DNA of 64,000 nucleotides, taken from a virus. The stretch spans positions 1 to 64,000 of the IMG/VR virus record IMGVR_UViG_3300045988_083449; one strand, 5' to 3'. Made by a program: the position numbers and the translations under genes. The notes under the pieces were generated by a model that worked only from the letters and a program-made list of their open reading frames with translations, was not told where the DNA came from and ran no database searches. This document shows, piece by piece, positions 27,179 to 50,688 of the stretch (the stretch's first letter is position 1; each line of letters opens with the position of its first letter).

Positions 27179-27250
27179 TTCGGAGGGTGGGACTCGAACC
27201 CACGACACACCCTTATTAAAGGCCGCTCTTGCCGACTGAGCTACCTCCGA
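27179..27250 (-). tRNA. tRNA with a non-canonical anticodon arm (loop TAATA or TTAATAA; anticodon uncertain)
   Basis: Acceptor TCGGAGG/CCTCCGA, D-arm GCTC-AGTCGGCAA-GAGC and T-arm GTGGG-TTCGAGT-CCCAC are all canonical. The anticodon region GCCTT-TAATA-AGGGT is 2 nt short of the standard 17 nt. No encoded CCA. Confidence 0.55.
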
Positions 27251-27435
27251 CCGTTCGTATTTCCTTCAACAAAATGGCGCCTGTTGCCGGTCATACAGGA
27301 CTGTCAGAGGCCAACCGACAGACCTTACACAGATGTTCGCTACACACCTGCACACCACCTCAAAAACCTACACGGACTCCGAGACACAAGCCTTGCGAGA
27401 CCTATATGTCTCGGATAGTGCAGGTCAACTCCTAG

Positions 27436-27510
27436 TGGAGCGGGTAGAGAGACTCGAACTCTCGTCAACGGCTTGGAAGGCCGTTGTTCTACCAGTTGAA
27501 CCATACCCGC
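27436..27510 (-). tRNA. tRNA-Gly (anticodon UCC), CCA encoded
   Basis: GCGGGTA TG GTTC-AACTGGTA-GAAC A ACGGC-CTTCCAA-GCCGT TGAC GAGAG-TTCGAGT-CTCTC TACCCGC T CCA. Confidence 0.9.
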
Positions 27511-27518
27511 AACAACCT

Positions 27519-27608
27519 TGGTCGGAAGGGATGGATTTGAACCACCGAGTCACCACTAGGGGAAACGGATTTACAGTCCGCCGCTTTCAACCGCTCAGCC
27601 ACCTTCCG
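27519..27608 (-). tRNA. tRNA-Tyr (anticodon GUA), bacterial type II with a long variable arm, CCA encoded
   Basis: CGGAAGG TG GCT-GAGCGGTTGAA-AGC G GCGGA-CTGTAAA-TCCGT, 18-nt variable arm, GGTGG-TTCAAAT-CCATC CCTTCCG A CCA. Confidence 0.9.
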
Positions 27609-34341: not shown

Positions 34342-35604
34342 ATGGCACAACGTGCAATTGCAGGACTTCGTGGTACTGGTCAGTTTGATGAAAACACACG
34401 ACCGACCAATTGGCGTGAAACGTTTACATTGCTGGAACCGAACGGTACTGCTCCGTTGAATGCGCTTTTGTCCTTTGCTCATTCCACGCCGACAGACGAC
34501 CCGAAGTACAACCATTTCCGTGACGAACTTCCGTCTCGTGTGTTGAAGGTATCCACTGCCACAACCGATTCTGCGACATCAATTGTCGTTACCGCTGACG
34601 ACAACGTTCCGTTCGTTGTTGAAAACGCAACTCTCTACAACACCCGCACTGGTGAAGTTATGAGAGCTACGGCTGACGCCAATACTTCCACGAACACTCT
34701 TACAGTTGCTCGTGGCGCTGGTGGCTCCTCTACTAAGAAAGCTGTATCCCAGGGCGACGAACTCGTTATCATCGGCTACGCCGCAAAAGAAGGTTCTGGC
34801 AAACCGTCCGTTGCAACGTTTGACCCCACAACGGATTACAACTACACCCAGATTTTCAAGACTGGCGTTTCCATCACTGGTACTTTGAAACAGACCTATC
34901 TGCGTACTGGCGATAAAGAATCCGAAATGTTGACCAAGGCTCTTAAGAACCACATGGCTGACATTGAACGTGCATTCTTCTTTGGTCAGAGAGCAATCGA
35001 AGACGAGAACACCGCTACACCTCGTCGTTACACAGGCGGTTTGTTCTCCATGATTCCTAATGTCATTGATGCCGCTTCCGCCTTTGAAGACGAAAACGTC
35101 ATCACTGAATACGAATTTGATCGTCTGTTGATCGAAGACTTGTTCGCTTGGGGTTCTAAGGAAAAAGTCATGTTCTGTGGCCCGAGAGTTATTTCTAACC
35201 TCATGCAGATCGCAAAAAATCGTTGGCAGCCGACTGCTGTAGACAATGCTTACGGCGTTTCCTTCGCTCGTTATCACACCTTTGCAGGTGACCTGCTTGT
35301 TTATATGCACCCGCTGTTCCGTCAGATTCCGTCCATGAACTCCAACGGCATCATCCTTGATATGGATTCCCTTGGCTATCGTTACATGAACGGTCGTGAC
35401 ACAACTCTGAAACGTGACGTTCAGGCTAACGACGTGGATGCGTCCGAACACTTCTACATCACTGAATGCGGTCTTGAACTGCTTCAGGCAAAACCTCACG
35501 CCATCATCAAGAACTGGCAGAGCGTTCGTCCTCTTGCAACCAAACCGTCTGAAGGCGGAGCTGGTGGAGCTGGTAGCACTGGTGGTGCAGGTCAGGGAGG
35601 CTAA
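34342..35604 (+). CDS. major capsid protein (putative)
   Basis: 420-aa gene after the scaffold-like gene, with an AAGGAG RBS, bracketed by two terminators (typical high-expression unit). Gly-rich C-terminal tail. Confidence 0.7.
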   Translation: MAQRAIAGLRGTGQFDENTRPTNWRETFTLLEPNGTAPLNALLSFAHSTPTDDPKYNHFRDELPSRVLKVSTATTDSATSIVVTADDNVPFVVENATLYNTRTGEVMRATADANTSTNTLTVARGAGGSSTKKAVSQGDELVIIGYAAKEGSGKPSVATFDPTTDYNYTQIFKTGVSITGTLKQTYLRTGDKESEMLTKALKNHMADIERAFFFGQRAIEDENTATPRRYTGGLFSMIPNVIDAASAFEDENVITEYEFDRLLIEDLFAWGSKEKVMFCGPRVISNLMQIAKNRWQPTAVDNAYGVSFARYHTFAGDLLVYMHPLFRQIPSMNSNGIILDMDSLGYRYMNGRDTTLKRDVQANDVDASEHFYITECGLELLQAKPHAIIKNWQSVRPLATKPSEGGAGGAGSTGGAGQGG

Positions 35605-35612
35605 TTAACTAA

Positions 35613-35633
35613 GGGAGCTTCGGCTCCCTTTTT
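35613..35633 (+). terminator. rho-independent terminator
   Basis: GGGAGC-TTCG-GCTCCC followed by TTTTT, 8 nt after the capsid stop. Confidence 0.8.
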
Positions 35634-35678
35634 AAGGAGAACTTATGACTTGTAAGAAGAAAGGTAAAGGAAGAGGAA

Positions 35679-35933
35679 ATGGCGGTCACTGCAAATAAGA
35701 AAGAAGTTGTTAAGGAAGAAGGTGCGTTCGTAACGTATTCCACCGTTCGTCCTTGCAACATCCTCTTTAACATTCTTTGTAAGGGCGAGATTATTTACGG
35801 ACGTTTCGCAGATCACCGCACAGCGGTTCGTTTTGACGTGCCGAAACACTTGGTGTCTGTATTTGATAAACACCATCATGTTCGTAAAGGCTTCATTGTT
35901 CCGTTGTCTAAGCTCCCGAAGAACCTTCAGTGA
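35679..35933 (+). CDS. hypothetical protein (84 aa)
   Basis: Co-oriented with the operon, with GGAAGAGGA upstream. Preferred over the antisense 139-aa ORF. Confidence 0.4.
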   Translation: MAVTANKKEVVKEEGAFVTYSTVRPCNILFNILCKGEIIYGRFADHRTAVRFDVPKHLVSVFDKHHHVRKGFIVPLSKLPKNLQ

Positions 35934-35953
35934 AGGTTGGGATTGGTAAGTAA

Positions 35954-36367
35954 ATGGCTGAGTCGGTTTCTCCAATCTCCCCGCATATCGGTGACGGTTT
36001 AACGTCACCTTTATCTGTCCTAACAAACAGAGCTCTTCGCAGATACGGAGAGTGGAATGCATCTACCGTTGATGCAGAAACGCAGTCCTTGTTTATCGAC
36101 TTGGCTAATGAAATTGTTGATGATGTTCGTGGTCATCCGTACTGGAATAACTTTCCCGAACTTGAGTATTACGTTTCCTCTGAAGACGTAAGACCTGTTC
36201 CCGATCCCGTGATGATTGCTGGTTTGTTAGCTAAATTCGCAGTGAATCAAGGTTCTAATAAGTGGGAAAAGTACGAGAACGATTATTACCAAAGACTCAA
36301 TCAGCACCTTTATTACGGGGCCACTGGTGGCTCTATGCCTCTTAACCTTCAAGTAGTGAGACGTTAA
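35954..36367 (+). CDS. hypothetical structural protein (137 aa)
   Basis: Operonic, with a TAATG overlap with the collagen-like gene. Confidence 0.5.
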   Translation: MAESVSPISPHIGDGLTSPLSVLTNRALRRYGEWNASTVDAETQSLFIDLANEIVDDVRGHPYWNNFPELEYYVSSEDVRPVPDPVMIAGLLAKFAVNQGSNKWEKYENDYYQRLNQHLYYGATGGSMPLNLQVVRR

Positions 36368-37347
36368 TGCCGTTTGTAGATTTATCAATGCACACCGACC
36401 CCAACAGGGGAATACCGAGAGGCCCTAAGAAGGCACATCACATAACCATTATTGGTGAACGTGGTCGTCAAGGTATTCCCGGACGTGATGGCAAGGACGG
36501 TAAGGATGGCCTTCGAGGTCTTAAAGGCGATAAAGGAGACAAGGGGGATAAAGGTGATAAAGGAGATCGTGGACTTCAAGGTGAAGCCGGTGAGCAGGGT
36601 ATCCGAGGCGAGAAGGGGGATAAAGGAGACCCTGGTGCATCGTTTATCCCTAACGTATACGACATAGAAGCGAACAAGTCTAATTATGACGATCAACCTA
36701 AAGGCTTCTCGATTCTCTGTATGGATACAGGGAATGTCTACTGGAAACTCTCTGACACCTCTGGTGATTGGACGACCACTCCTCTTAGGTTCATAGGGCA
36801 GAAAGGGGACAAAGGTGATAAAGGAGACACTGGCGAAGCCGGGGTTAAAGGAGACCGAGGTTATACGGGAGCCCAAGGGCCTCGTGGTGCCACAGGTCTT
36901 CAGGGCGAGAAGGGTGAACAAGGCATCCGAGGTTTGAAAGGCGACAAAGGGGAGAAAGGGGATAAAGGCGACAAGGGTGATGTCGGAGCTTCCTTCGTTG
37001 CCTCTGCCTCCGACCTTCGTTCCGCTCGTTCCCAGTATGCAGATCAGCCTAAAGGTTTTTCTTTCCTAGCGATTGACGAAGGAAAGCTGTATTGGAAACT
37101 TTCAGACGAAGACGAGTGGTCAACGGGATTTGAGTTCGGCCCAGGAGAGAAGGGAGATAAAGGTGATAAGGGAGAAGCTGGTAAGGATGCGACAGACATT
37201 GTGTTAGACCCTGATCCTGAGGAATATTTCATGTCTATCTATGGGGTTACAGAAGGAAATGTATTGACCAGTTCTGTCACAAAGGTTGAGGCTTTAGACC
37301 CGAGTCCCTTGGAAACTTACCTAACAACGAGAGGTATTGATGACTGA
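36367..37347 (+). CDS. collagen-like triple-helix repeat fibre protein
   Basis: G-X-Y runs at aa 30-90, 144-207 and 258-272 (for example GDKGDKGDKGDKGDRGLQGEAGEQGIRGEKGDKGDPG), separated by a duplicated globular unit. Confidence 0.85.
   Translation: MPFVDLSMHTDPNRGIPRGPKKAHHITIIGERGRQGIPGRDGKDGKDGLRGLKGDKGDKGDKGDKGDRGLQGEAGEQGIRGEKGDKGDPGASFIPNVYDIEANKSNYDDQPKGFSILCMDTGNVYWKLSDTSGDWTTTPLRFIGQKGDKGDKGDTGEAGVKGDRGYTGAQGPRGATGLQGEKGEQGIRGLKGDKGEKGDKGDKGDVGASFVASASDLRSARSQYADQPKGFSFLAIDEGKLYWKLSDEDEWSTGFEFGPGEKGDKGDKGEAGKDATDIVLDPDPEEYFMSIYGVTEGNVLTSSVTKVEALDPSPLETYLTTRGIDD
36454..36636 (+). repeat. 9-bp-periodic coding repeat (G-X-Y block 1). Similar blocks lie at 36796-36987 and 37138-37182.
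   Basis: Reiterated ggngayaarggngayaar units encoding GDK triplets. Confidence 0.8.
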
Positions 37348-37747
37348 TACGGCAAATCCTAACACTCCTTACACCCTTCTTGAACAGCAATTAAATGAGA
37401 TGGCAAGAAGGATGGCCTTGGATGTCAACTCGATGGAGGAATTTGTTTCCACGGGAAAGACAGCTCTTCTCAAAGCTATAGATGACAACAAAGATGAAGT
37501 AAACACTTTTATTACCGGGAAGACTTCCGAAATAAATTCTGTGATCTCAGGTATGCAGTCTGACGCAGAGGAAGTTCTTACAGAACTACAGACCGATAAC
37601 TCAGCAGCAGTAGCCGCAATTAACACTGCGGCGGAGACACAACGAGCACAGATTCAATCACAGGTTGATAGCTTGGTTGCAGGACTTACGGGTTCTGACT
37701 ATGAGGCAGTCTTTGTTGCAGAACTGAATAAAACAGAGGAAGGGTAA
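37337..37747 (+). CDS. hypothetical coiled-coil structural protein (136 aa)
   Basis: Operonic, overlapping the upstream gene by 11 nt. Confidence 0.5.
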   Translation: MMTDTANPNTPYTLLEQQLNEMARRMALDVNSMEEFVSTGKTALLKAIDDNKDEVNTFITGKTSEINSVISGMQSDAEEVLTELQTDNSAAVAAINTAAETQRAQIQSQVDSLVAGLTGSDYEAVFVAELNKTEEG

Positions 37748-38119
37748 ATGTCAGAAACAAACATGAATGAGCAGATCATCAAGGTGGTTGGACGTATCGC
37801 AAAAGAGATGCGGAACATCGTTGCCACTGTGATGACTAAGGTGAGTACGGACGATTTCAATACAGCATTAGCGGCTAAGGCGGATGCGGCTACAACAACT
37901 GCGGCCTTGGATGGAAAAGCTGAAACTTCTGTAGTGAACTCTGCCTTAGCTTTAAAGGCCGATAAGACTGAAGTTCAACAGATTGTGGAAAGTTTAGGCG
38001 AAGGAGATTTAGCTACTAAGACCTATGTTGATACCGCAGTTGCAGGAGTTCAGGTCGGCGCCGGTTCTATCACGGCAGATAAGTTAGCTGACGTTATTGA
38101 TTTAGGAACGATTGAATAA
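37748..38119 (+). CDS. fibre-associated Ala-rich protein (123 aa)
   Basis: Repeats ALAAKADAATT / ALALKADKTEV and TKTYVDTAV, typical of fibre shafts. Confidence 0.5.
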   Translation: MSETNMNEQIIKVVGRIAKEMRNIVATVMTKVSTDDFNTALAAKADAATTTAALDGKAETSVVNSALALKADKTEVQQIVESLGEGDLATKTYVDTAVAGVQVGAGSITADKLADVIDLGTIE

Positions 38120-38481
38120 TGACAATTCGTCTTCAGCTTAAACGAGCTACCGCAACTAAGAACGACACATATACAGGTGCCGAAGGTGAGATCACTGTAG
38201 ACCTTACGAATATGAGGTTGCGAGTACATGACGGGTCTACTGCCGGTGGATACCCCGTTGCAAAAGCCGAAGATATTAAAACGAAGCTGACCGATTATTC
38301 CGACTCTCCTTACCATACGAAGACTAGTTTGACAGGATTAAGTCAACTAACGAACGACGCTGGGTATTGGTCAAAGACCTCCTTAACGAAGTTGTCGCAG
38401 TTGACCAACGACGCTGGGTATATCACTGGATACTGTTCACATTGTTCGGGATATTGCACTTACTGCACACATTGTTCATAG
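38119..38481 (+). CDS. tail-fibre-like protein with a Cys-rich C-terminus (5 Cys), paralog 1
   Basis: N-terminus LQLKRATA..GAEGEITVDLTNMRLRVHDGSTAGG (fibre N-terminal motif), 2x SLT(G/K)LSQLTNDAGY, then GYCSHCSGYCTYCTHCS. Confidence 0.75.
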   Translation: MTIRLQLKRATATKNDTYTGAEGEITVDLTNMRLRVHDGSTAGGYPVAKAEDIKTKLTDYSDSPYHTKTSLTGLSQLTNDAGYWSKTSLTKLSQLTNDAGYITGYCSHCSGYCTYCTHCS

Positions 38482-38488
38482 GAGAGTA

Positions 38489-38956
38489 ATGACAACACTT
38501 CAGTGGAAAAGAGGAACGACTGAGAAGGTTGAAGGATACGCTGAGACCGCTCTTGAGGGAGAGCTGGTCGTTGACACTGCGACTCATAGGGTGAGTGTGT
38601 ATGACGGCGCAGGAGGAAGAAACGAAATTCCTCTTCTCTCTGATGTCAAAACAACTCTCGCTTCCTTAACGAATGATATTAGTGCTTGGAGTAAGAGTGA
38701 TTTAACCAAGGTAAGTCAGTTAAGTAATGATTTAGATTTTTGGTCAAGCGGAACACTTAGCAAGGTAAGCCAGTTACAAAACGATAGTGGCTTTAAGACG
38801 GGGTACTGTACGCATTGCCAATATTGTCAGCACTGTCAGCAGTGTAGTAATTGTCATAACTGCAACACCACACAATGTACAACTGTCAATTGCTCCATTC
38901 AACATTGCCTAGTGATCTATTGTCTGTGCAATTGTGATTGCACTGACGATAGTTGA
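38489..38956 (+). CDS. tail-fibre-like protein with a Cys-rich C-terminus (14 Cys), paralog 2
   Basis: GGAGAG RBS. LQWKRGT..LEGELVVDT..HRVSVYDG. SKVSQL(S/Q)ND repeats. Tail GYCTHCQYCQHCQQCSNCHNCNTTQCTTVNCSIQHCLVIYCLCNCDC. Confidence 0.75.
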   Translation: MTTLQWKRGTTEKVEGYAETALEGELVVDTATHRVSVYDGAGGRNEIPLLSDVKTTLASLTNDISAWSKSDLTKVSQLSNDLDFWSSGTLSKVSQLQNDSGFKTGYCTHCQYCQHCQQCSNCHNCNTTQCTTVNCSIQHCLVIYCLCNCDCTDDS

Positions 38957-38968
38957 TAGTTAAAAGAT

Positions 38969-39550
38969 ATGAAAACAACTCAGTTAGAAAATGCGGCAAA
39001 AGTTCAGTTAGTTAGAGGAAGTAACGAAGCCACTTCCGCCCTATCAGGGTTGGAAGGAGAGGTGGTTTTAAACCTTACAGATTTAAGTTTAAAAATAAAT
39101 GATGGGGCGGCTCAAGGTTGGGTTGCTACGGCCTCTAATCAATTGGCGGCTCTTTCTCAGCTAGTGGATTCTGACTCAATTTGGACATCAACAACTTTAG
39201 CCAAAGTAAGTCAACTCGCAAACGATTCTCAATTTTGGAAAAAATCTGAATTAACAAAAGTAAGTCAGTTAGAAAACAACAGCGGGTACAAGACTGGTTA
39301 CTGTACTTACTGTTCCCACTGTACTTATTGTCAAAAATGCAGCCGCTGCAATAACGTGCAATGTAGTCAGGTTCAATGTGGAAACTGCAATCACTGTACA
39401 CAATGTTTTAAATGTCGGAGCACCGGAAACTGCGGGGACTCAGTTGTTAACTGTGGTCAATGTCATTGCTCGTATTACTGCAATGGTTATTGCTCAGATT
39501 GCACATACGTTCACTGTGTTTCCGATTGCATAAATCAACTAAACCAGTAA
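38969..39550 (+). CDS. tail-fibre-like protein with a Cys-rich C-terminus (21 Cys), paralog 3
   Basis: VQLVRGS..LEGEVVLNLTD..LKINDG. (A/T)KVSQL(A/E)N(D/N)S repeats. Tail GYCTYCSHCTYCQKCSRCNNVQC...CVSDC. Confidence 0.75.
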   Translation: MKTTQLENAAKVQLVRGSNEATSALSGLEGEVVLNLTDLSLKINDGAAQGWVATASNQLAALSQLVDSDSIWTSTTLAKVSQLANDSQFWKKSELTKVSQLENNSGYKTGYCTYCSHCTYCQKCSRCNNVQCSQVQCGNCNHCTQCFKCRSTGNCGDSVVNCGQCHCSYYCNGYCSDCTYVHCVSDCINQLNQ

Positions 39551-39561
39551 TAGGAGACAAT

Positions 39562-40455
39562 ATGGGTTATTCAAGACATGTTATTTGTCAAAGTGAAATT
39601 CCTTTCGTGATGAATATTGTCATCAATGATGACTCTATAGCTTTCAGGCTGCTGTCTGAAATTAATGAAAGCGTAAACGTAGCGACTGATGCAGTTCAGT
39701 TTGGGGTGGAAAAGTTACTAACAACGGAACAGCTCTCTTTTAATCCAGTGGCTTTCAACGTGAATGACAAAACGTTTTTAGTTGACGGAACAGAGTATGC
39801 CATCTACTCGGAGTTAATCTTTAATCGTGAAGATACTACGTATAACCGCCTACTTGTACCGGGAGCTCACTTTTGTTTTTGGTTGGATTTAAGCCGCCAC
39901 CCTCGACTGTGCTTAGATGTTCGTGGAACGATGACTTATTTCAATCAGAGAAACACTGCTGAGTTGATAAAAGCGAAAGGCGGTCTTTGGCTGTTTGACT
40001 TTTGGATTCGTAATCCAGAAGACTCTTTCAAACAATGTAATCGTTCGATTACTACTTCGGTAACTACAAAACTTATTACCAACATAGATGACCTCGGGGA
40101 AGAGTGGGCTGCCGAAGATGTGATGACAGGCACTACCTCTAAGTGGTTGAACTTGGCGTATGAGTTAACGCCGAACAAAACAGAGGTTGAACCTGAAGGC
40201 TGGGTTACATTCACTCTAAAAGTCCTTGACGGAAAGACTAAGGAGTTAGCGACTGATGTTACATATGACGGATATATTGTGGAGGCTGTCGATGGTTATG
40301 CGCCTCACAAGCGTGTGAATGTCGTTGACGGAATTGGAACCTTCAAAGTAAAGGCTTTCGGCTTGGAAAATGGAGATAAGCTGCGAGTCAAGATTAACCA
40401 ACGTTTTTATACATCTCGAGTTGAAGCAACGGTTGATGTCGTATCGCCAACTTAA
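39562..40455 (+). CDS. hypothetical protein with an Ig-like C-terminal domain (297 aa from ATG 39562)
   Basis: AGGAG RBS before 39562. The C-terminal region GWVTFTLKVLDG...VNVVDGIGTFKVKAFGLENGDKLRVKI looks like a bacterial Ig-like (Big) beta-sandwich. Confidence 0.55.
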   Translation: MGYSRHVICQSEIPFVMNIVINDDSIAFRLLSEINESVNVATDAVQFGVEKLLTTEQLSFNPVAFNVNDKTFLVDGTEYAIYSELIFNREDTTYNRLLVPGAHFCFWLDLSRHPRLCLDVRGTMTYFNQRNTAELIKAKGGLWLFDFWIRNPEDSFKQCNRSITTSVTTKLITNIDDLGEEWAAEDVMTGTTSKWLNLAYELTPNKTEVEPEGWVTFTLKVLDGKTKELATDVTYDGYIVEAVDGYAPHKRVNVVDGIGTFKVKAFGLENGDKLRVKINQRFYTSRVEATVDVVSPT

Positions 40456-41419
40456 CATTATGTTCGGTAGTGCCTGTGATATGAAGTGCGGGTACTGCCT
40501 TCAAACAAACGGTTTATCCCCAGCTGATAAGAAAGCAGATGCACAAGAGTTTGTGCAAAAGTTACTGCCGCACTTAAACGGTCAGACTCCTAAAAAAATA
40601 ATGTATTGGGGCGGAGAGCCGATGCTTTATTGGGAGAGGATAAAAACTATTCATTCCCTCCTATCTGAAAATGGAATTGTTCCAAGTCAATCTGTAATCA
40701 CTACTAACGGAAGAAGGCTGACAGAAAGCTATGTGGACTATGCGAATAGTCATGAAGATATATGGACAACCGTTTCCTGTCATGGCTGGGATTTCACGGA
40801 TAAACAGTTAGAGACGATCTTTAAACTTAAGCGCTTCTCTCTGTCTGAACTTGTGCACCACTTCCGAACAGACCTATGGGAAATACGGGACAGGTACTAC
40901 GAAATCAAAGATAAGTTCGGGGTTTCGCCCAATCTGTGTGTGCACTTTCTCAGAGCTAACGATGGGTGTAATACAGCCTACTACATGACTAAAGAGGATG
41001 TGGATAAGTTCTGCGACCACATTCGTACTGAAGTAATCCCAATGGCTAGGCTAGGAGATGAATGGGCGCAATGGCAGTGTTCCCAACTCTTATTTGAACG
41101 AGACCGCATAATCGCCAAAGGCATTGGCCCTTTATGCGTAAGAAGCGATCAGCTATCCATTGACCTTCACGGCAATGTGTACAACTGCCATCACAATTAC
41201 TGCAAGACAAACATTGTGAGAAACGTTTTTGAAAAAGTAATACCAATTCAAAAAGCAGATTCATTATGTGGTTCTAGGTTTTTTAATTCCGAGGAATGCC
41301 AGTCTTGTGAATTATTAGAGCAGTGCAGAGGTGGCTGCTACACCTCTAATACACACGAGGTTGATTGTTACTTCGCAAAGGAAAGGGCAAAACTTTACGA
41401 GATTATGGAGAGACGATGA
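40436..41419 (+). CDS. radical SAM enzyme with a SPASM domain (maturase type), paralog A
   Basis: CDMKCGYC (Cx3Cx2C), YWGGEPMLY, ITTNG, IDLHGNVYNC, and an exact SPASM signature CQSCELLEQCRGGC (Cx2Cx5Cx3C). The alternative start at 40460 cannot be excluded. Confidence 0.85.
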   Translation: MSYRQLNIMFGSACDMKCGYCLQTNGLSPADKKADAQEFVQKLLPHLNGQTPKKIMYWGGEPMLYWERIKTIHSLLSENGIVPSQSVITTNGRRLTESYVDYANSHEDIWTTVSCHGWDFTDKQLETIFKLKRFSLSELVHHFRTDLWEIRDRYYEIKDKFGVSPNLCVHFLRANDGCNTAYYMTKEDVDKFCDHIRTEVIPMARLGDEWAQWQCSQLLFERDRIIAKGIGPLCVRSDQLSIDLHGNVYNCHHNYCKTNIVRNVFEKVIPIQKADSLCGSRFFNSEECQSCELLEQCRGGCYTSNTHEVDCYFAKERAKLYEIMERR

Positions 41420-42669
41420 AGTTAAAGTTGCATTGCAAAACGCATGACGGCAAACAGGAAGACTGGATTTACGACAACGTAACAAACGAGATTTGGAACA
41501 GTAATGGAGATTTAGTCGATCTATCTAAAGATGAAAGACTGAAGCCTTATGCGATGACAAAGCAACGAGAAAAACCTTCACCAGTTTCTAATCACAAGTC
41601 CAATGAGATTTGGAACTTAAAGATTCAGTTAGGCCTTAAGTGCAATATGCATTGCAAGTATTGCGCACAAACTGGAAACGAAATCGGAGCTTCTGTTTTC
41701 ACTCAGCGAGATGTCGAACCGTTTATCAAGAAACTCGTTGACAATAAGATCGAGGCTGTTGGCTCCATTGAACTATGGGGCGGAGAGCCCTTTGTCTATT
41801 GGAAAGTCCTTCAAAAGTTGATCCCTGAACTTAGAAGAATTTATCCCAAAGTGTCAATCGGGATGATCACAAACGGAACCCTCCTAACAGAAGAGAAGAT
41901 TGAGTTCTTAGAAAAATATAAGTGCGGACTTACCTTCTCTCATGACGGACTTGGTTTTCACCTTCGTGGCAAAGACCCGTTGGACGACCCGAAGATGGTT
42001 GACCTTTGGAGGTTGGCAATTCAGAAACTCGGTGCAAACATCAACTGCGTACTCACTCCTGCAAATATAGACATTAACGCAACGGCGGAGTACATCCGGG
42101 AGAAACTTGGAGGAGTTTATTTCAACTTTGAAGGCGTGATGACCCACGTAGGTGTTCAGGATTCCGAGTTAATGTTTACACCAGCTCAGATGCTCACGCT
42201 TCAGAAAAACATCTTTAACGAACTAACTAAGAATGGTTGGGATAAATTCCCAGCACTGACGAATGAATGTAACGAACTGCTCTTGCAACTGACTCAGAGA
42301 AAGAAGTTAGACCTTGGTACAGTTAAATGCGGAATGAATCGAGAAAACGTTTGTGCAATTAACCTCAACGGAGATGTTCTTTCGTGTCACGACTTTGCGA
42401 CAAAGGAAAAGTACGTTGGTCATATATCTGCAATGGGTAAAGTAGATATTTCCAAACACTTTAAGTCTTGCGGCGAAAGAGAGAAGTGCCGAAAGTGTTT
42501 GCTTCTGTCCATGTGCCGTGGTGCCTGTCCTCAGATAGAAGGACTCGCTCGAACACTGACGTGTAAGAACGAGTTCAACTATCACTTCGCTATTTTTCAG
42601 GCTGTGTGGTGGCTGCTGTTTGGTTTGACTATTGAGAGTTACGAGACTTTAAGTTGTCACTTGCAGTAG
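41416..42669 (+). CDS. radical SAM enzyme with a SPASM domain (maturase type), paralog B, with an ~80-aa N-terminal extension
   Basis: ATGA coupling to paralog A. CNMHCKYC, LWGGEPFVY, MITNG, INLNGDVLSC, and SPASM CRKCLLLSMCRGAC. Confidence 0.85.
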   Translation: MKLKLHCKTHDGKQEDWIYDNVTNEIWNSNGDLVDLSKDERLKPYAMTKQREKPSPVSNHKSNEIWNLKIQLGLKCNMHCKYCAQTGNEIGASVFTQRDVEPFIKKLVDNKIEAVGSIELWGGEPFVYWKVLQKLIPELRRIYPKVSIGMITNGTLLTEEKIEFLEKYKCGLTFSHDGLGFHLRGKDPLDDPKMVDLWRLAIQKLGANINCVLTPANIDINATAEYIREKLGGVYFNFEGVMTHVGVQDSELMFTPAQMLTLQKNIFNELTKNGWDKFPALTNECNELLLQLTQRKKLDLGTVKCGMNRENVCAINLNGDVLSCHDFATKEKYVGHISAMGKVDISKHFKSCGEREKCRKCLLLSMCRGACPQIEGLARTLTCKNEFNYHFAIFQAVWWLLFGLTIESYETLSCHLQ

Positions 42670-43013
42670 AGTTTTCGGACGATATCGGACGGAGAGTCGG
42701 GAACAATAGGCATCCATCCTTCCGTCGAAACATCTAATCTAAATTGTGGGGAACCCTGTGCGTTAAACCCATTATGAACATATGCAGAATCCACTTTGAA
42801 GTACTGTTTTTTGCAATCGACCAAGACGTGGTCTTTTACAGAAACACCTCTTTGGGGTATGTTTGTGACACTCCAATATCCAATCTTATTCTTAGTGATG
42901 GAATTAACAGAAATAAGTTTGGTTTGTGGGCCAAGTTGCATAAGCTCTTTTCCAATAACTAGATTACTGAATAAGAAACACGAGAGACAGAGTAGTATCT
43001 TTAAAGATTTCAT
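42657..43013 (-). CDS. small secreted protein, paralog family member 1
   Basis: Signal peptide MKSLKILLCLSCFLFSNLVIG. Conserved ...VDCK ... PDSP....V.KLYCK. Confidence 0.6.
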   Translation of the reverse strand: MKSLKILLCLSCFLFSNLVIGKELMQLGPQTKLISVNSITKNKIGYWSVTNIPQRGVSVKDHVLVDCKKQYFKVDSAYVHNGFNAQGSPQFRLDVSTEGWMPIVPDSPSDIVRKLYCK

Positions 43014-43031
43014 ATTTTTTCGTCTATCAGG

Positions 43032-43442
43032 TTATTTAGGTAGTCGCTTACATAACACATCGGCAAACACTCTCACCATATTGCTCTTATCGGGAGACAT
43101 TGCTGACCATCGTTTTACAATATTCGGGCCATCGAGACTTATGCAATTTTTACCCATCTCTTTAGAACAGTAGTAGAGAGAGTCGATAGTAAATCTTTTA
43201 GTTCGACAGTTAGCTAAAAAGTAAACTTTTTTTGATTTGAATTTTTTTCCTGATAGTTCCTCTTCTATATTTAACAACATCCACCAACCGACAATATCTG
43301 GACTTTCTCTCACCTCCGATCCTTTTACGTAAAAGTCGGTTTCAGACATTTGAAGTAAATCTTCAATCTCTTGAGATTGGGCTAAGGAGGTGAAGGAGAG
43401 GGTGATAATAGAAATGAGAGTTAATTTTATAAATTTAAGCAT
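43032..43442 (-). CDS. small secreted protein, paralog family member 2
   Basis: Signal peptide MLKFIKLTLISIITLSFTSLAQS. Conserved ...LANCR ... SPDKS..V..F..VLCKRL. Confidence 0.6.
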   Translation of the reverse strand: MLKFIKLTLISIITLSFTSLAQSQEIEDLLQMSETDFYVKGSEVRESPDIVGWWMLLNIEEELSGKKFKSKKVYFLANCRTKRFTIDSLYYCSKEMGKNCISLDGPNIVKRWSAMSPDKSNMVRVFADVLCKRLPK

Positions 43443-43524
43443 CTACACATTCTTCCAAAGAGATTCGCCCTTCAATTATATGATTGAAACAGTCGTTTTA
43501 TAAAGGTAAAGGAATGGTAAAGGA

Positions 43525-43719
43525 ATGAGATTAGATTGCAAATTAGAAATAATTAAAGACGAGGAACGTACCCCCTGTGAGATATGGACTCGTGTCATGG
43601 GTTACCATCGCCCAATCTCCTCATTTAACATCGGCAAGAAAGGGGAGTTTGCCAACCGCAAATACTTTAAAGAACCTAAAGGCGGAGTACCGTCGTCCTG
43701 TACTTGCCGAGGTAAGTAA
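43525..43719 (+). CDS. stand-alone NrdD-type glycyl-radical domain protein (64 aa)
   Basis: TRVMGYHRPISSFNIGKKGEFANRKYF aligns with the C-terminal glycyl-radical motif of class III ribonucleotide reductases (R.xGY......FN.GK..E....R). Four Cys flank it (C5, C18, C58, C60). Confidence 0.6.
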   Translation: MRLDCKLEIIKDEERTPCEIWTRVMGYHRPISSFNIGKKGEFANRKYFKEPKGGVPSSCTCRGK

Positions 43720-44594
43720 TGGCCCAACATCTCCCTGAAAGCGGAACGATTGGATTGGGAATGGCTCGTAGCCAATGGAACGATAACGGGCCGAATCCTG
43801 TTACTTCCATCAGTCTTGGTGGCAGCCAATGCCGCTCCTTTGCGCAGAAGCCTAACGGTGCCGTAAAGATGTCTGACCTGTACGCAAAGTACCGAGGCTA
43901 TAAGATGCAGTTCTTTAGTTATCCTGTCACTTGCAAGATTGATGTGGATAATACTTACGATGGCGATGGGCAGATTGACGTACCAGCTCACACTATTGGC
44001 GGTAACTTTATTGGTGTCGGAGCCTTTAGGCGACAAGTGGTTAATTGTCTCTTTCCGTTTCACGACATCCCAACATACACGATCAACCTTGGGAACATCA
44101 CGCCGCAAAAGTTCGGCACAGTCTCGTTAATGTTTATCGGCTACACGAGAACTTGTTCTAATTGGTACAACCGGACTTGGGATTCAATGGGGATTTCAGT
44201 TCAGATTGACGGCCTACCGAATCCTGTTATTGAGAACGGAAACTTCGGAGCTGTTACTGATAACCGATACCCATTAAACCTCTCTATGACTTATCGTCGT
44301 AACAGCAGCTCCCTCAAGTCGATAACCTTTAGAAAGGTCTGTCACCAGCCGAGTAATGGCGGTAACTACATGGTGAGCGAACCGTGGTTATTTGGCCGTC
44401 AATACACTGGTCAGTATTCGGGTGCTAAGGCCGTGTGGACAATGAGAGAATTAGGAAACCTAGGTCTGACTTGTAATCAAGCAGGACAACCTGGCGGAAA
44501 CAAGATGTGGCTTGTCTCCTACTATTACGGCGGCAGAGAACCATTCAACGTAGGAGACCAAGTGGAGATCGTGGATATTAGTTATTGGTGGTGA
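43719..44594 (+). CDS. hypothetical protein (291 aa), possibly structural
   Basis: TAATG coupling to the upstream 64-aa ORF. No motif recognised. Confidence 0.5.
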   Translation: MAQHLPESGTIGLGMARSQWNDNGPNPVTSISLGGSQCRSFAQKPNGAVKMSDLYAKYRGYKMQFFSYPVTCKIDVDNTYDGDGQIDVPAHTIGGNFIGVGAFRRQVVNCLFPFHDIPTYTINLGNITPQKFGTVSLMFIGYTRTCSNWYNRTWDSMGISVQIDGLPNPVIENGNFGAVTDNRYPLNLSMTYRRNSSSLKSITFRKVCHQPSNGGNYMVSEPWLFGRQYTGQYSGAKAVWTMRELGNLGLTCNQAGQPGGNKMWLVSYYYGGREPFNVGDQVEIVDISYWW

Positions 44595-45004
44595 TACGCT
44601 TCTCCTAAGCGTTTACAAACCAATTTAGCAATCTTTTCCTGATAAGAATTTGGAATAATTTTTTCATAATCGCTTGTTGGGCTGTATTTGTTTTTTTTGT
44701 TGTCGAAGGTGGTTACTTGCCGAACTAATAACCACCAAGTTCCGCTCCTACAATTTATGAAATAAACTTCTCTCTCTAACCAAATCGCTTCGTTATTTGT
44801 CTCTTCGGTGTAATTGTGTTCTACGAGAAGGGCAGCTTGAACAATTCCGCTCTTGTCCGTGCTGAGTTTAGAAAATTTTGTGTCTAAATAAACAGTAAAA
44901 GGTTTCACCTTATCAATAATTTCTAAACTCGGATCGTCGTTCGGACTAAATGAAAAGGCATGATTTGTAAGGATGAGCAAAGCTAAGAATAAAATTTTCT
45001 TCAT
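44582..45004 (-). CDS. small secreted protein, paralog family member 3 (140 aa from ATG 45004)
   Basis: AGGAGAAGG RBS. Signal peptide MKKILFLALLILTNHAFS. Conserved ...FINCR ... IPNS....IAKLVCKRL. Confidence 0.6.
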   Translation of the reverse strand: MKKILFLALLILTNHAFSFSPNDDPSLEIIDKVKPFTVYLDTKFSKLSTDKSGIVQAALLVEHNYTEETNNEAIWLEREVYFINCRSGTWWLLVRQVTTFDNKKNKYSPTSDYEKIIPNSYQEKIAKLVCKRLGEAYHHQ

Positions 45005-45077
45005 TGTCCTTCTCCTACAGTTTCCCATAGTCTAAAAGCCTAAAACCATAACCTCAAGCGGAACTATTTGAGGTTAT

Positions 45078-46589
45078 ATGATTCGTTCCGTTCCATCTTC
45101 TAAAACATCCAAGCTCATGTACGGGGGCTTTACTGGCTTAGATACAAGCCGAAGTGAAGTCGTACATGAGGTCAATGAACATCAGCCTTTTGCTAATGTG
45201 AATAACGCATACATAGATTGGAGTGGCTACGTTTCTAACGAACGAGCGATTGAAAGAATCGGTAAGGAAGGACGGTACATTTCCCATGTTCGCTTTGCGT
45301 ACAACGGAGAGATTCTGTACGCCACAAGAGGAGAACAGAGCATAAGTATTTGGAACTCTCGTGAGCTAGAGAGCGGAAGGAATGAGTCCAAGATTGTTTT
45401 CCCTACGAACACGATCACCTCTACATTATCTAACGGCGAAGTCGTCTTTTGTGCAGGAGAGGCACCTTATCGTTATGTTGCTCAAGAATGGAAAAGGATT
45501 GACTCCCCTGACGCATACGGTGCGACCTTATGTGCGTCCGTGTCAGGACGCTTGGCTTTAGCCGGATTTAAAAATGCTCCCACGGTTGTTCGTTTCTCTC
45601 GTGTGGACGACAACGAAATCTTTGAATGCGACGAAGATGTTGCAGATATTCAGGTAACAAAGGCTGGAGGCATCAACCTTAAGACTGTGCTCAATAGAGC
45701 AGAAACGATTACAGCTTTGTTCCCCTTCGGTGCGAATCAGCTTCTTATCTTTACGAATGCTCGTTGTCTCATCTATGAGATCAATGCGGATTTGACCACA
45801 TGGAAGCAGGTTTCGGACGTTCATATCTATGTCGGCTGTGTGTCTCAGAACTCTATCTGCGGTTGGGCAAACGAGGTTATCTTCTGTAGCCGTTACGGTA
45901 TTTACACGCTTAAGCGTTCTGTGGCAAACGGTACGGCTCTTGTGGTCTTGCCTTATTCGCATAAGGTACAAAGCGTTTATCAAGAACTGCTTTCTCGGTT
46001 GGAAGACCCGAGACTAATCAACGCAGTCTTTGATTCAGATTGTGGTCGTTATCACATATTTTTCCCGTTAAGTCCACGAGGAGCTTCACGGCTTTCCTGC
46101 TCAGTCTCTCCAGTTGCTCAAGAAGAGGGAAGCTCGGGTTCTCCATCGTGGTCTTTTTCCGAATACGGCAATCTAACGTGCGGAGACTTTCTAGATGGAA
46201 AGTTACTTATGGGCAGTTGCGGTGGTATTTGGAGAATGAAATCCGAGTACGAGGAAGGAGGAGATATCGGAGAGGCAGTCTTCTCAACTCCTTTGCTTTG
46301 GATGAACGAACGTTTTATGCCTAAGCGTGGTCATCAGATCGGAATCATTGCCGACGGGGCTGGTCAGATAGAAGTTGAGATTGAAAACGAAGAAGGACAG
46401 ATATTGGATGTCCTTCGTTGGGACTTGCCCTATGAAGATCAATCGGTATTTCACGGAACTCGAAAGGGCAGACAGTTCACTCGAATTTTTCCCCATTTAT
46501 TTACAGGCGTAAAGCTCACCTTCCATATACGGAACGTGACCAAGAGCTTACGTATTTACGGATTCACTATCGAAATTAAGGAGCAATAA
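45078..46589 (+). CDS. hypothetical virion structural protein (503 aa)
   Basis: Large ORF in the tail/fibre region, co-oriented. No motif recognised. Confidence 0.55.
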   Translation: MIRSVPSSKTSKLMYGGFTGLDTSRSEVVHEVNEHQPFANVNNAYIDWSGYVSNERAIERIGKEGRYISHVRFAYNGEILYATRGEQSISIWNSRELESGRNESKIVFPTNTITSTLSNGEVVFCAGEAPYRYVAQEWKRIDSPDAYGATLCASVSGRLALAGFKNAPTVVRFSRVDDNEIFECDEDVADIQVTKAGGINLKTVLNRAETITALFPFGANQLLIFTNARCLIYEINADLTTWKQVSDVHIYVGCVSQNSICGWANEVIFCSRYGIYTLKRSVANGTALVVLPYSHKVQSVYQELLSRLEDPRLINAVFDSDCGRYHIFFPLSPRGASRLSCSVSPVAQEEGSSGSPSWSFSEYGNLTCGDFLDGKLLMGSCGGIWRMKSEYEEGGDIGEAVFSTPLLWMNERFMPKRGHQIGIIADGAGQIEVEIENEEGQILDVLRWDLPYEDQSVFHGTRKGRQFTRIFPHLFTGVKLTFHIRNVTKSLRIYGFTIEIKEQ

Positions 46590-46592
46590 TCA

Positions 46593-48134
46593 ATGGCACG
46601 TATTCGCCAACTTTACCCGTCTCGGTACTCTTCTACAGAGGCTACTTCAGCAGAGTTTGAAAACATCATCCGCTATCTCAGAAGCGGTGAAATTGGAAAT
46701 AGAACTTTATCTGAATTGCTACGCCAAATCTTTAACTCCGAAGGTAACTTAGATGTTGGCTTGGAAATTCGCTTTGATTCTAAGTACGGGCTCGAATATC
46801 GAATCGGTGGAGACGATCAGGAGTGGTTGCAGATCATTGAACCTGAAGCGTTGCGTGGAGAACCTGGTGAGTATGTCGGTGAGATTGGCGATGCCCTGAT
46901 GTTCAACCGAGCTGACTATGATGGTGACGGCACAACTACGGTCTTCAACTACGCTTTCTCTGAATCAGAGGCCGAAACCATTCTATTTAGAAACGGTCTG
47001 CTTCAATCTCCTAACGCCTACACGTTAGATCAAATCAACGGGACAATCACAATCTTTCCGGCTATTGGTGCTAACGAAACTCTAACGGTGTTTCAGACCA
47101 GAAAGAGTGAGCTTAACGGATTCTCTCGGACAGAGATTGTTGCTACTCAGAATCAGTACATCATTCCGTTTAAGTTCAACAACGAAGATCAAATCTTTGT
47201 TTATCGCAACGGCATTCTTTATAAGGAAGGTGAGAACGACGACTACATCCTAAACGCTGGAACATCCACGATTACGTTCTTAGCTCCTATGGCCTCAGGC
47301 GATGTTGTCACAATCCTTCGTATGCAGGGAGGCGGTCTGAGAGCTGTTGGGGGACTGCTGATGCAAGATCAGTATTGCTACAACGGAAAGATTCTTTACG
47401 ACAAGATTCTGATTGACGATGGCGATATCTCTCCTGAAAAGGTTGAAGGCTTGTTAGGACTAATGGAAAAGTCCAAGCGGGTATTCGTTCAAGATACCGA
47501 GCCTATCGACACCGACGAAGTAGAAATTGAAAGCGGAGACTTGTGGATTAAGACAGGTCTGCCTATATCCGTCTTGTATTTCTATGACGGACTTCGTTGG
47601 GTTTCTACTGCGCCTGACGGTTCCGTTCCAGCAATCAACAAAGGAGACGAGCTTCGCTATCTCCGTGTGAACTCTGCGGGTTCTGCTCTTGAATTTGCTG
47701 CTATTGATCTGTCTACCTGCGTAAAGAAAGATGAAGTTGGCAACCCTAACGGTGTCGCACCTTTGGACGAGAACGGACAGATTGCGGACGAGCTGATCAA
47801 ACAGCATTACTCCTATGCTCCGATTCAATATCGCACGGATGGAACCATTGCTAAGGACGCAGTTCTTACGCTCGGGTATATCGCAAACGTTCAGTCTTAC
47901 CTAGACAAGATGACACTTTCCTTAGATGTGGGTACAGCAACCGTTCAGCTCTATGTCGGAGATATGGCGGTAGGTGCTACGACAGATCTTACGACAGCAG
48001 ACGTTACTCAGACTTGGGTTGCTAAGAAGTTTGACGGACGAACTATTCCTAAGAAGATCACGTTAGAGATCACAGCCGCATCTGATGACGCTAAAGGTCT
48101 TACTGTTAATCTGCGGCAGAGAATCGTAGGGTAA
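46593..48134 (+). CDS. fibre/structural protein sharing an N-terminal domain with 30287..31393
   Basis: SGEIGNRTLSELLRQIFNSEG...LEYRIGG aligns with ACEIGSRPVYDLLEEIFSDTTG...LQIRAGQ of the earlier fibre-like gene. Confidence 0.55.
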   Translation: MARIRQLYPSRYSSTEATSAEFENIIRYLRSGEIGNRTLSELLRQIFNSEGNLDVGLEIRFDSKYGLEYRIGGDDQEWLQIIEPEALRGEPGEYVGEIGDALMFNRADYDGDGTTTVFNYAFSESEAETILFRNGLLQSPNAYTLDQINGTITIFPAIGANETLTVFQTRKSELNGFSRTEIVATQNQYIIPFKFNNEDQIFVYRNGILYKEGENDDYILNAGTSTITFLAPMASGDVVTILRMQGGGLRAVGGLLMQDQYCYNGKILYDKILIDDGDISPEKVEGLLGLMEKSKRVFVQDTEPIDTDEVEIESGDLWIKTGLPISVLYFYDGLRWVSTAPDGSVPAINKGDELRYLRVNSAGSALEFAAIDLSTCVKKDEVGNPNGVAPLDENGQIADELIKQHYSYAPIQYRTDGTIAKDAVLTLGYIANVQSYLDKMTLSLDVGTATVQLYVGDMAVGATTDLTTADVTQTWVAKKFDGRTIPKKITLEITAASDDAKGLTVNLRQRIVG

Positions 48135-50680: not shown

Positions 50681-50688
50681 GAGTAGAC

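Follow-up and report, generated by a model that had tools for sequence, protein, structure and literature searches.

A stretch of viral DNA of 64,000 nt (the window), comprising positions 1 to 64,000 of the IMG/VR virus record IMGVR_UViG_3300045988_083449, carries six adjacent genes that we read as a phage late-operon module, in which radical S-adenosylmethionine (SAM)/SPASM enzymes would modify the cysteine-repeat C-terminal ends of the fibre proteins encoded just before them. Judging from the sequence, we put the probability of this reading at roughly 0.6. The genes f1, f2, f3, ORF4 (for open reading frame), rSAM1 and rSAM2 share one orientation, and re-measurement confirmed the tight packing described in the original prediction, with junctions of +7, +12, +11, -20 and -4 nt, the last being an ATGA overlap. 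About a hundred further viral contigs and some conjugative elements show the same pairing, and the module conserved in divergent phages consists of a fibre with a Cys-repeat end, a protein of the ORF4 family and at least one radical SAM/SPASM enzyme. The original prediction had proposed a maturation of fibres resembling that of peptides made on the ribosome and modified after translation (RiPPs). A maturation system acting on fibre tails is still the best reading, because the nearest relatives of the enzymes are maturases and their linkage to the tails is near-obligate, while the leader, protease and exporter logic of RiPP pathways fell away.

The putative fibre genes f1, f2 and f3 are paralogues, with identities of 42% (E = 3e-24) and 41% (E = 3e-32) in pairwise comparisons. 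f1 (120 aa, 38119-38481, + strand) has an Mtd_N-like N-terminus and two LSQLTNDAGY repeats, followed by the tail GYCSHCSGYCTYCTHCS at nt 38428-38478. The tail of f2 (155 aa, 38489-38956, + strand) spans nt 38801-38953, combines Cx2C, Cx4C and CxC sections and ends in CNCDCTDDS, and that of f3 (193 aa, 38969-39550, + strand) spans nt 39296-39547 and holds 21 Cys. Short Cx4C stretches, such as CNTTQCTTVNCSIQHC, occur in both f2 and f3. As predicted, the three proteins contain 5, 14 and 21 Cys, all of which follow a G-Y-C at residue 104, 105 or 110, with none before it. In the tails 25-29% of the residues are Cys, as against 1.1% in the remaining long ORFs of the window (for f1, f2 and f3, binomial p = 8e-7, 3e-16 and 1e-22), and no comparable Cys run was found in any other ORF of at least 50 aa in all frames of the window. 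The two to three copies of a repeat that had been described in each protein were also recovered: the strict form L-[ST]-K-[LV]-S-Q-L-x-N-D-x-x-[YF] occurs twice in every paralogue, and f2 and f3 have a third, degenerate copy.

Alignment of five orthologues showed that all five Cys columns of the f1 tail are invariant and the residues between them variable, and the Cys columns of the f2 tail are likewise all invariant across five orthologues. Most positions between the invariant Cys of the f1 and f2 orthologues are variable and can be taken by S, T, H, Y, A, G, F, N or Q. Comparison with Pfam placed f1 in the Mtd_N family (35.7 bits, cut-off 26.3), and f1 also matched phrog_9648, annotated as "tail protein"; f2 scored 21.1 bits against Mtd_N, under the same cut-off, and f3 had no Pfam match. 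All three genes follow the capsid gene and a gene for a collagen-like fibre. Tails in the lineage of the window mix Cx2C, Cx4C and CxC spacings, whereas the residues between the Cys of CxC runs are 48% N and 21% D in loci that were not selected by motif. The Cx2C tail of the window is a lineage-specific variant, and the common core is (N/D-C)n.

rSAM1 (327 aa, 40436-41419, + strand) contains CDMKCGYC, GGEP, TNG and CQSCELLEQCRGGC, together with the signature C[YH]xSxTH[ED]xDC, and rSAM2 (417 aa, 41416-42669, + strand) contains CNMHCKYC, GGEP, TNG and CRKCLLLSMCRGAC. The two are 25% identical (E = 4e-16). Both exceeded the cut-off of 27 bits for the SPASM model TIGR04085, with 36.1 bits for rSAM1 and 34.3 bits for rSAM2. 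For the radical SAM core, rSAM2 passed the Pfam model Radical_SAM (PF04055) with 50.8 bits, and rSAM1 fell slightly under its cut-off of 29.5 with 28.0 bits and passed Fer4_12 (PF13353) with 24.4 bits (cut-off 22). By motif and profile both can thus be classed as radical SAM/SPASM proteins, which bears out the earlier description of the pair. rSAM2 further matched phrog_1802 with 181 bits, and database names for homologues are limited to "radical SAM protein", "anaerobic sulfatase-maturating enzyme" or "uncharacterized".

Among 54 homologues of rSAM2, C76 and C80 of the Cx3Cx2C motif are invariant and C83 nearly so; in the SPASM region C305, G319, C324, C358, C361, C367, C371 and C383 are invariant. 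By the definition of the motif as CX9-15GX4C...CX2CX5CX3C...C (PMC6231123), exactly seven SPASM Cys are invariant in these homologues and a conserved eighth is absent. Seven is the pattern of CteB and AlbA, in which a site on auxiliary cluster I is left open, and the auxiliary clusters of anSME, SuiB and PqqE are fully ligated (PMC6231123). The AlphaFold model of rSAM2 (predicted local distance difference test, pLDDT, 93.5) superposes on radical SAM structures, the best folds being anSME, CteB, ChlB, SuiB and TigE, with DesII, viperin, BlsE and MoaA ranked lower. CteB and SuiB are also the nearest sequences of known structure in the PDB. A conserved N-terminal extension of about 60 residues, modelled as three strands and one helix, precedes the core of rSAM2 and is lacking in rSAM1; in the model it does not amount to the full winged helix-turn-helix of a RiPP recognition element (RRE).

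The best NCBIfam matches of the enzymes, namely PapB, nif11-type, SCIFF, CefB, anSME, QhpD, GggB and CcpM, are all peptide or protein maturases. Grouping with enzymes of non-protein substrates, which would have spoken against the original prediction, was not seen, because PapB-, SCIFF- and CteB-like maturases outrank small-molecule enzymes, and the nearest relatives by both sequence and fold act on peptides or proteins. The enzymes belong to none of the characterised families tested, as rSAM2 and rSAM1 scored 87.3 and 59.2 bits against the PapB-family model NF047865 (340 required), 67.3 and 43.2 bits against the SCIFF maturase model TIGR03974 (425 required), 60.5 and 33.3 bits against the anaerobic sulfatase maturase model TIGR03942 (349 required), and 56.6 and 40.2 bits against the QhpD model TIGR03906 (453 required), with fibre genes rather than qhpA and qhpC as neighbours. 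The model for CefB, the Cys-every-fifth maturase (NF038107), gave 61.4 bits where 600 are required. A role in defence was rejected, since PADLOC returned only generic viperin-core matches; the similarity of both enzymes to prokaryotic viperin models extends over only about 100 residues of the radical SAM core. Synteny ruled against auxiliary metabolic genes, as start and stop codons of the enzyme genes overlap those of structural genes.

The association of enzymes and tails was examined from both sides. A profile built from rSAM2, rSAM1 and two homologues from cultured phages retrieved 80 viral loci whose enzymes share 27-98% identity, and linkage was scored when an ORF on the same strand within 5 kb upstream had (C-x)3+C or (C-x-x)3+C in its last 60 residues. 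For 66 loci at least 3 kb of upstream sequence was visible, and 39 of them had such an ORF, against a background of 8 among 4489 other ORFs; most of the loci that failed still had a Cys-run protein, placed downstream, further upstream, shorter, or before a Hint or S74 domain. Starting from the tails, a DNA pattern for CNCNCNC[ND]C, which covers the CxC tail type, yielded 120 further stretches; after filtering for at least 50 aa in frame upstream, an end no more than 25 aa after the motif start and at least 3 kb visible downstream, 50 of 53 ORFs had a radical SAM/SPASM gene downstream on the same strand, at a median distance of 1287 nt. Both tests reject chance adjacency, and the concern that Cys-rich fibres might usually occur without a neighbouring radical SAM gene proved unfounded. 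Enzyme and tail are thus linked near-obligately in both directions across many divergent phages.

Cultured phages have the same arrangement. In Achromobacter phage JWF the enzyme gene, whose product gp030 is named anaerobic sulfatase-maturating enzyme in GenBank, follows a fibre gene, and gp028 carries ...NCNCDCNCNCSC and then a Hint domain. In Ralstonia phage RSP15 the enzyme, ORF045, likewise follows fibre genes, one of which, ORF048 ("side tail fiber"), ends in ...NCQCGN; ORF046 of this phage had no Pfam match. Among ten tail-bearing proteins sampled, nine matched tail-fibre PHROGs or collagen families, and three contained collagen repeats. The partner fibres in other loci range from 80 to 890 aa and have unrelated N-terminal parts, for example collagen repeats or pectinesterase-like domains. 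The N-terminal part of the fibres had been proposed to act as a RiPP-style leader, which is unlikely because fibres paired with the same enzyme family share no N-terminal part. Recognition more likely depends on ORF4, on the tail itself or on the stretch immediately preceding the tail.

The two enzyme types go with different features of the tails. Enzymes of the rSAM1 type (310-352 aa, with the signature given above) were found only where the run precedes an acidic [GST]-D-[DGN] end or a similar one (such as TDDS, GDDN, SDDNCSE, GDG or RD). Where this type was present, the end was acidic in 10 loci and flush in none; where it was absent, 4 loci had an acidic and 52 a flush end, and three of those four exceptions have another short radical SAM gene missed by the pattern. 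Counted over distinct loci, the association gives a Fisher p of 4.7e-9, which is indicative only because the loci are phylogenetically non-independent. The long rSAM2 type goes with the Cys run, and f2, ending in ...CNCDCTDDS, provides the acidic end in the window. This covariation of the rSAM1 type with the acidic end argues that each enzyme type reads a different feature of the tail. In locus L008 (3485-11261), two fibre ORFs with very complex tails (Cx4C, Cx2C and CxC, ending in GDSDTDG) are accompanied by a row of four radical SAM-like genes, and the Cx2Cx5Cx3C motif is present in just two of these. This pairing of complex tails with four enzymes suggests that enzyme number scales with tail complexity.

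In most loci the Cys run is followed directly by a stop codon, and in others the chain continues into a second domain. JWF gp028 has a Hint domain behind its run (PF05203, 47.5 bits, cut-off 32.1), and homologous Hint-like extensions occur across L017, L059, L060, L065, L004/L005/L085 and L083/L087. The f2 orthologues of L004, L005 and L085 continue past ...CNCDCTDDS with such a domain, and the stop codon of f2 in the window falls exactly where the Hint-like domain of the L004 orthologue starts. Although the extensions behind the runs of L004, L083 and L087 had no match in Pfam, they are mutually homologous by BLAST (E = 1e-10 to 4e-12), that of L004 matches the JWF Hint domain directly (E = 2e-7), and those of L083 and L087 align with the JWF-group domain of L059 at E = 1e-3 to 8e-5. 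Common to all Hint-like extensions are the blocks CF..G....DG...I..I.VGD and T/S-x-x-H, and the L004 and L083 extensions are called Hint-like because of this BLAST similarity and these common blocks. In L014 a Peptidase_S74 domain (44.4 bits) follows a (CK)n run, and the proteins of L018 and L019 have a similar sequence behind theirs. Hint and S74 domains were thus found in relatives and are absent from the window. Both domains self-cleave, and the Peptidase_S74 chaperone marks trimeric fibres and spikes; we know of no description of a Hint domain directly behind a Cys run. The run would therefore end the mature chain in every case, because it is followed either by a stop codon or by a domain that cleaves itself off. 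The (CK)n proteins (L014 481-1221, L018 945-1739 and L019 1781-2488) contain up to 27 Cys alternating mostly with Lys, and their genes lie 6-7 kb upstream of a radical SAM gene.

ORF4 (297 aa, 39562-40455, + strand) combines a beta-rich N-terminal part with a C-terminal immunoglobulin (Ig)-like domain. No family was found for it in Pfam, PHROG or NCBIfam. In its AlphaFold model (pLDDT 92) the beta-rich part is novel; a fold search in the PDB returned Ig-like domains only, and in BFVD the whole fold is common to uncharacterised phage proteins only. An iterated profile detected the ORF4 family in 103 of the loci studied, typically between fibre gene and enzyme gene. Within a library of 1.84 billion representatives the family counts 305 members at E <= 1e-3. 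The commonest order, fibre-ORF4-rSAM, was seen in 38 loci, in addition to variants with several fibres or enzymes, and 20 loci have fibre and rSAM genes without ORF4. The Ig-like end noted in the original prediction is upheld by the model, and the protein is no bystander, since its family accompanies so many loci. ORF4 may be a partner of the fibre tip or a fibre-specific chaperone or adaptor.

Comparison with L003, a contig from a Human Microbiome Project sample, showed how unevenly the region diverges. The collagen-like protein is 94% identical between the two, followed by a 136-aa ORF (46%), a 123-aa ORF (88%), f1 (91%), f2 (67%), f3 (52%), ORF4 (41%, the most divergent gene), rSAM1 (80%), rSAM2 (98%) and the next three + strand genes (96-97%). 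Relative to L003, window positions 37337-41419 form a hypervariable cassette between flanking genes that are 94-98% identical, which looks like the pattern expected for exchangeable host-range determinants. As identity drops to 52% and 41% amid conserved flanks, f3 and ORF4 resemble receptor-binding determinants that can be exchanged, or else a fibre tip and its cognate chaperone.

The module is not restricted to virions. Three to five radical SAM/SPASM genes behind a homologue of ORF4 are also found in each of L083 (a 2.0-Mb chromosome), L084 (a metagenomic contig) and L086 and L087 (metagenome-assembled genomes of Sutterella and Duodenibacillus). The modules of L083 (8121-16932), L087 (4640-17661) and L084 adjoin F-type conjugation genes (TraC, TraN), and L086 begins too near its module to show such neighbours. 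The apparent substrate, 346-360 aa long and truncated by the contig end in L086, has a signal resembling those for twin-arginine translocation (Tat), TRRQALL or SRRKALL, and a CNCNC...CNCGDD[SG] run followed by a Hint-like domain; the L083 protein also has a TraN-like Cys module. The Tat pathway exports folded proteins. The Tat-like signal therefore suggests that this substrate would be modified and folded in the cytoplasm before export. A search of PLSDB plasmids with a conjugative-element rSAM query found no true homologue, only distant QhpD, nif11-type, anSME and SCIFF genes.

Several known systems resemble the module in part. The maturases of sactipeptides, SCIFF peptides and ranthipeptides (CteB/ScfB, PapB, AlbA) combine a radical SAM core with a seven-Cys SPASM domain and have a Cys-rich C-terminal substrate encoded beside the enzyme, and they include the best sequence matches of the module enzymes (PapB E = 1e-24, SCIFF 1e-18, CteB, 5wgg, 3.6e-11). 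However, the module enzymes reach a quarter or less of the cut-offs of these families, and their substrates are structural proteins of 80-890 aa instead of peptides of about 45-50 aa. The SCIFF maturase ScfB/CteB, for instance, pairs with a peptide of about 45 aa, whereas its counterparts in the window neighbour proteins of 120-193 aa with another Cys pattern. The module core is (N/D-C)n or Cx2C in place of Cx3D or SCIFF motifs, ORF4 is an extra partner, and there is no leader protease, exporter or evident complete RRE. By a strict definition the module is accordingly not a RiPP system, as protease and transporter are missing and the precursors are fibres of up to 890 aa with unrelated N-termini.

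QhpD, which acts on QhpC in the maturation of quinohemoprotein amine dehydrogenase, also belongs to the radical SAM/SPASM enzymes and forms several Cys-to-Asp/Glu thioethers within a protein subunit while this is still in the cytoplasm, before export. Its model TIGR03906 matches full-length (E = 1.8e-15 over residues 71-420), and peaB genes were the best long plasmid matches in the PLSDB search. The acidic [GST]-D-D ends of the module tails would supply Asp acceptors, as for QhpD. Unlike the module fibres, the QhpD substrate is an enzyme subunit with a quinone cofactor and no tandem Cys repeat, and the score of 56.6 bits stands well below 453. At the distal end of a trimeric fibre, the T4 gp37 His-x-His iron needle has an alternating residue pattern similar to that of the tails, and in both gp37 and the HK97 capsid chainmail a virion part assembled in the cytoplasm owes its stability to short periodic motifs or to covalent bonds. 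These rely on metal coordination or autocatalytic isopeptide bonds and, unlike the module, have no dedicated enzyme encoded beside the structural gene. In the HXS anti-phage system (HxsA-D), what the paired radical SAM enzymes mature is a protein with short His-x-Ser tandem repeats rather than a small peptide, and once matured it takes part, outside the cytoplasm, in the conflict of phage and host (PMC13128918). HXS differs in being a host defence, in having HxS and not Cys repeats and in lacking the ORF4 partner; the HxsB and HxsC models match the module enzymes weakly (47 versus 370 and 32 versus 268 bits). A full-text literature search, covering few subscription journals, found no paper linking radical SAM/SPASM enzymes to phage fibres, joint mentions being incidental.

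We propose that the modification would take place in the cytoplasm, before or during fibre assembly. 5'-deoxyadenosyl radical chemistry, aided by two auxiliary Fe-S clusters, would join Cys sulfur to carbons of neighbouring residues, within one chain or between the chains of a trimer. The links would belong to the thioethers, whether of sactionine, ranthionine or QhpC type, with Asn and Asp as the likeliest acceptors, and the product would be a compact, redox-independent staple of the tip that could be made in a reducing cytoplasm and survive the anaerobic gut. ORF4 would be a receptor-binding partner docked on the tip, or a fibre-specific chaperone or adaptor. The parts of this scheme differ in strength. 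That the enzymes modify the tails is quite likely, and that the product is a thioether is a tentative assignment, slightly short of even odds. A thioether is the most parsimonious product because the nearest characterised sequence relatives make thioethers on Cys-rich substrates, N (48%) and D (21%) separate the Cys of the runs, the seven-Cys SPASM pattern fits an open cluster site, and reduction-resistant links made in the cytoplasm would suit the virion of a phage of an anaerobe. NxxcB, PapB and QhpD use N or D acceptors. Still more speculative is the widest form of the proposal, a portable kit of phages and of conjugative elements of the same hosts that makes thioether-welded trimeric fibre or adhesin tips, possibly with inter-chain links, on which the hypervariable ORF4 binds the receptor.

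The tails might be the substrate and the chemistry another, with Cys converted to formylglycine (the aldehydes perhaps condensing with Lys or Asn), epimerised, or joined by C-C or other links, which we consider unlikely. anSME, the top structural neighbour (E = 1.4e-13, template modelling score 0.58-0.66), acts on Cys of proteins, not on leader peptides, and does so without a leader or RRE; its model TIGR03942 matches rSAM2 full-length (E = 1.5e-16), and the (CK)n variants set a Lys beside every Cys. Many partner fibres are collagen-like, and animal collagen is cross-linked through aldehydes. Yet the anSME substrate motif C/S-x-P/A-x-R occurs in none of the tails, 60.5 bits compare with a cut-off of 349, and thioether-forming maturases rank higher by sequence. 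The SPASM region of the module family also has seven conserved Cys, compared with the eight that ligate the clusters of the fully ligated anSME (PMC6231123).

More improbable than a different chemistry on the tails is the view that these are metal-binding or disulfide knots formed without an enzyme, and that the enzymes have a different target, be it ORF4, some other virion protein, a nucleotide or a cofactor. In its favour, the spacings Cx2C and CxC are classical for metal binding, alternation would put all Cys on one face of a beta-strand, towards the trimer axis as in the T4 gp37 analogy, the RP12 and RP31 phages carry homologous enzymes without a Cys run, and both enzymes match viperin models over about 100 residues of the core. 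Such knots would leave the near-obligate adjacency in both directions and the covariation of enzyme type with tail feature without a reason; moreover, the viperin, MoaA and DesII matches are confined to the core or ranked under peptide maturases, a full SPASM domain is typical of peptide and protein modifiers, and disulfides do not form in the cytoplasm, the site of virion assembly. Hardest to credit is that f1-f3 are non-virion precursors of a secreted RiPP-like cargo (a toxin, signal or exclusion factor) with the fibre-like N-terminus as leader. Small size (120-193 aa), a fibre-domain threshold passed by f1 only, RiPP maturases as the best enzyme matches and a Cys-rich core behind a leader, typical of SCIFF and ranthipeptides, would all fit. 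However, genes for a protease, an exporter or immunity are found neither in the operon nor in its relatives, bona fide long tail fibres of other phages (with collagen repeats or the S74 chaperone) have the same run at their ends, the genes lie inside the structural block, from the capsid gene to large ORFs of structural size, and f2, f3 and ORF4 are hypervariable, as host-range determinants are.

Modification of the tails by the enzymes is the reading we prefer, and a number of observations weigh against it. The loci are phylogenetically non-independent, ORFs were called mechanically, and the motifs were regular expressions and thus crude. In the Ralstonia jumbo phages RP12 and RP31, what precedes the homologous enzymes is a fibre-like virion protein that lacks a Cys run, and for this reason these phages were rejected as further examples of the module. 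Three (CK)n variants place Lys, not Asn or Asp, between most Cys of the run, and the Cx2C/Cx4C tail type is available from one lineage only (L003-L007 and L085). f3 is without a fibre-family match and f2 has a sub-threshold one, and f1-f3 are putative virion proteins. The best fold match, anSME, makes formylglycine and not thioethers, and the NCBIfam matches are all far under their family cut-offs, for example 87 versus 340 bits for PapB. Similarity cannot predict function in the SPASM subfamily, as PMC6231123 warns.

Further variants of the gene arrangement were noted. In RP12 (L205, 131-8224), three radical SAM genes and a less clear fourth lie behind the virion structural protein, which has fibre-type repeats and no Cys run; an ORF of about 295 aa takes the position that ORF4 holds in other loci, and between them is an ORF of 125 aa with many Tyr, Trp and His residues, possibly a substrate of another kind. 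In L043, L044, L056, L062, L068, L069, L075 and L082, a Cys-rich partner of about 300 aa is encoded directly after the enzyme and has an N-terminal Cys-rich region (...NCNCGNIQCTNC...NCD.Q..LQ...C.YNC...) in place of a C-terminal run. A second accessory protein of about 240-280 aa with the motif LEAQVD(L/V)LT is encoded between the Hint-bearing substrate gene and the enzymes, or before ORF4 (L001 7249-7971, which is JWF gp029; L083 9216-9992; L086 441-1244; L087 6778-7629). JWF gp029 and the L083 homologue had no Pfam match.

IMG/VR contigs are predicted viruses, and terminase, portal, major capsid protein and tRNA genes identify the window as phage DNA. The large terminase gene lies at 20039-21754, the portal gene at 28374-30287, the major capsid protein gene at 34342-35604 and three clustered tRNA genes, for Ile-AAT, Gly-TCC and Tyr-GTA, at 27179-27608 on the - strand. 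The capsid protein has its best identity, 51%, to Roseobacter phage CRP-810, and a megablast search of window positions 36000-46000 against phage genomes matched nothing, hence no cultured relative is near at the DNA level. The rSAM2 of the human-sample contig L003 is 98% identical to that of the window, and homologues of ORF4 or the enzymes were found in genomes of Parasutterella, Sutterella, Duodenibacillus and Mesosutterella, for which reason the host is probably a gut member of the Sutterellaceae.

The module genes sit in the structural block, between the capsid gene and large ORFs of structural size. Their upstream neighbour encodes a collagen-like fibre protein of 326 aa (36367-37347, + strand; Pfam Collagen 77.3 bits, tail-fibre PHROGs with E down to 8e-33). 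Their placement in the middle of a fibre module, as originally described, therefore stands on the upstream side and not on the downstream side, where the ORFs compared had no PHROG match: ORF 43719-44594 had none at E <= 0.01, and the ORFs at 45078-53241 had none at 1e-5, the sole limit tried for these ORFs. A 3349-aa ORF (53318-63367, + strand) and two ORFs of about 850 aa (48134-50680 and 50671-53241) were likewise without a PHROG match at E <= 1e-5; these three are putative large virion-associated or ejection proteins. Three small - strand ORFs (42657-43013, 43032-43442 and 44582-45028) with signal-peptide-like N-termini and similar C-terminal ends, ...(L/V)(Y/L/V)CK(R)L, break into the structural block, and L003 lacks all three; they are probably morons for secreted proteins or lipoproteins. 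In a scan of 35500-45500, promoter-like sites were no commoner than in shuffled sequence and marked no operon boundary, and terminator-like sites, 14 against a shuffled expectation of 7.8 (about twofold), marked none either.

The post-translational chemistry of virions is thought to consist mostly of proteolysis, autocatalytic cross-links and glycosylation. If our reading is right, many phages bring their own radical enzymes to alter their fibre ends chemically, and the module would provide the first cross-link installed by a radical SAM enzyme in a virion and a new class of SPASM substrate, the terminal (N/D-C)n of structural proteins. For enzymology, phrog_1802 would emerge as a large, uncharacterised SPASM clade whose substrate, a repetitive protein, can be predicted, and the sequence would show how two enzymes share the work, one acting on the run and the other on the acidic end. 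The presence of the module beside TraN in conjugative elements of Sutterellaceae suggests an adhesin technology common to phages and conjugation. Achromobacter phages JWF and 2-1 and Ralstonia phage RSP15 are cultured carriers of the module. For the engineering of host range the consequence would be practical, in that heterologously expressed receptor-binding proteins of this kind would misfold or be inactive without their partner enzyme and ORF4.

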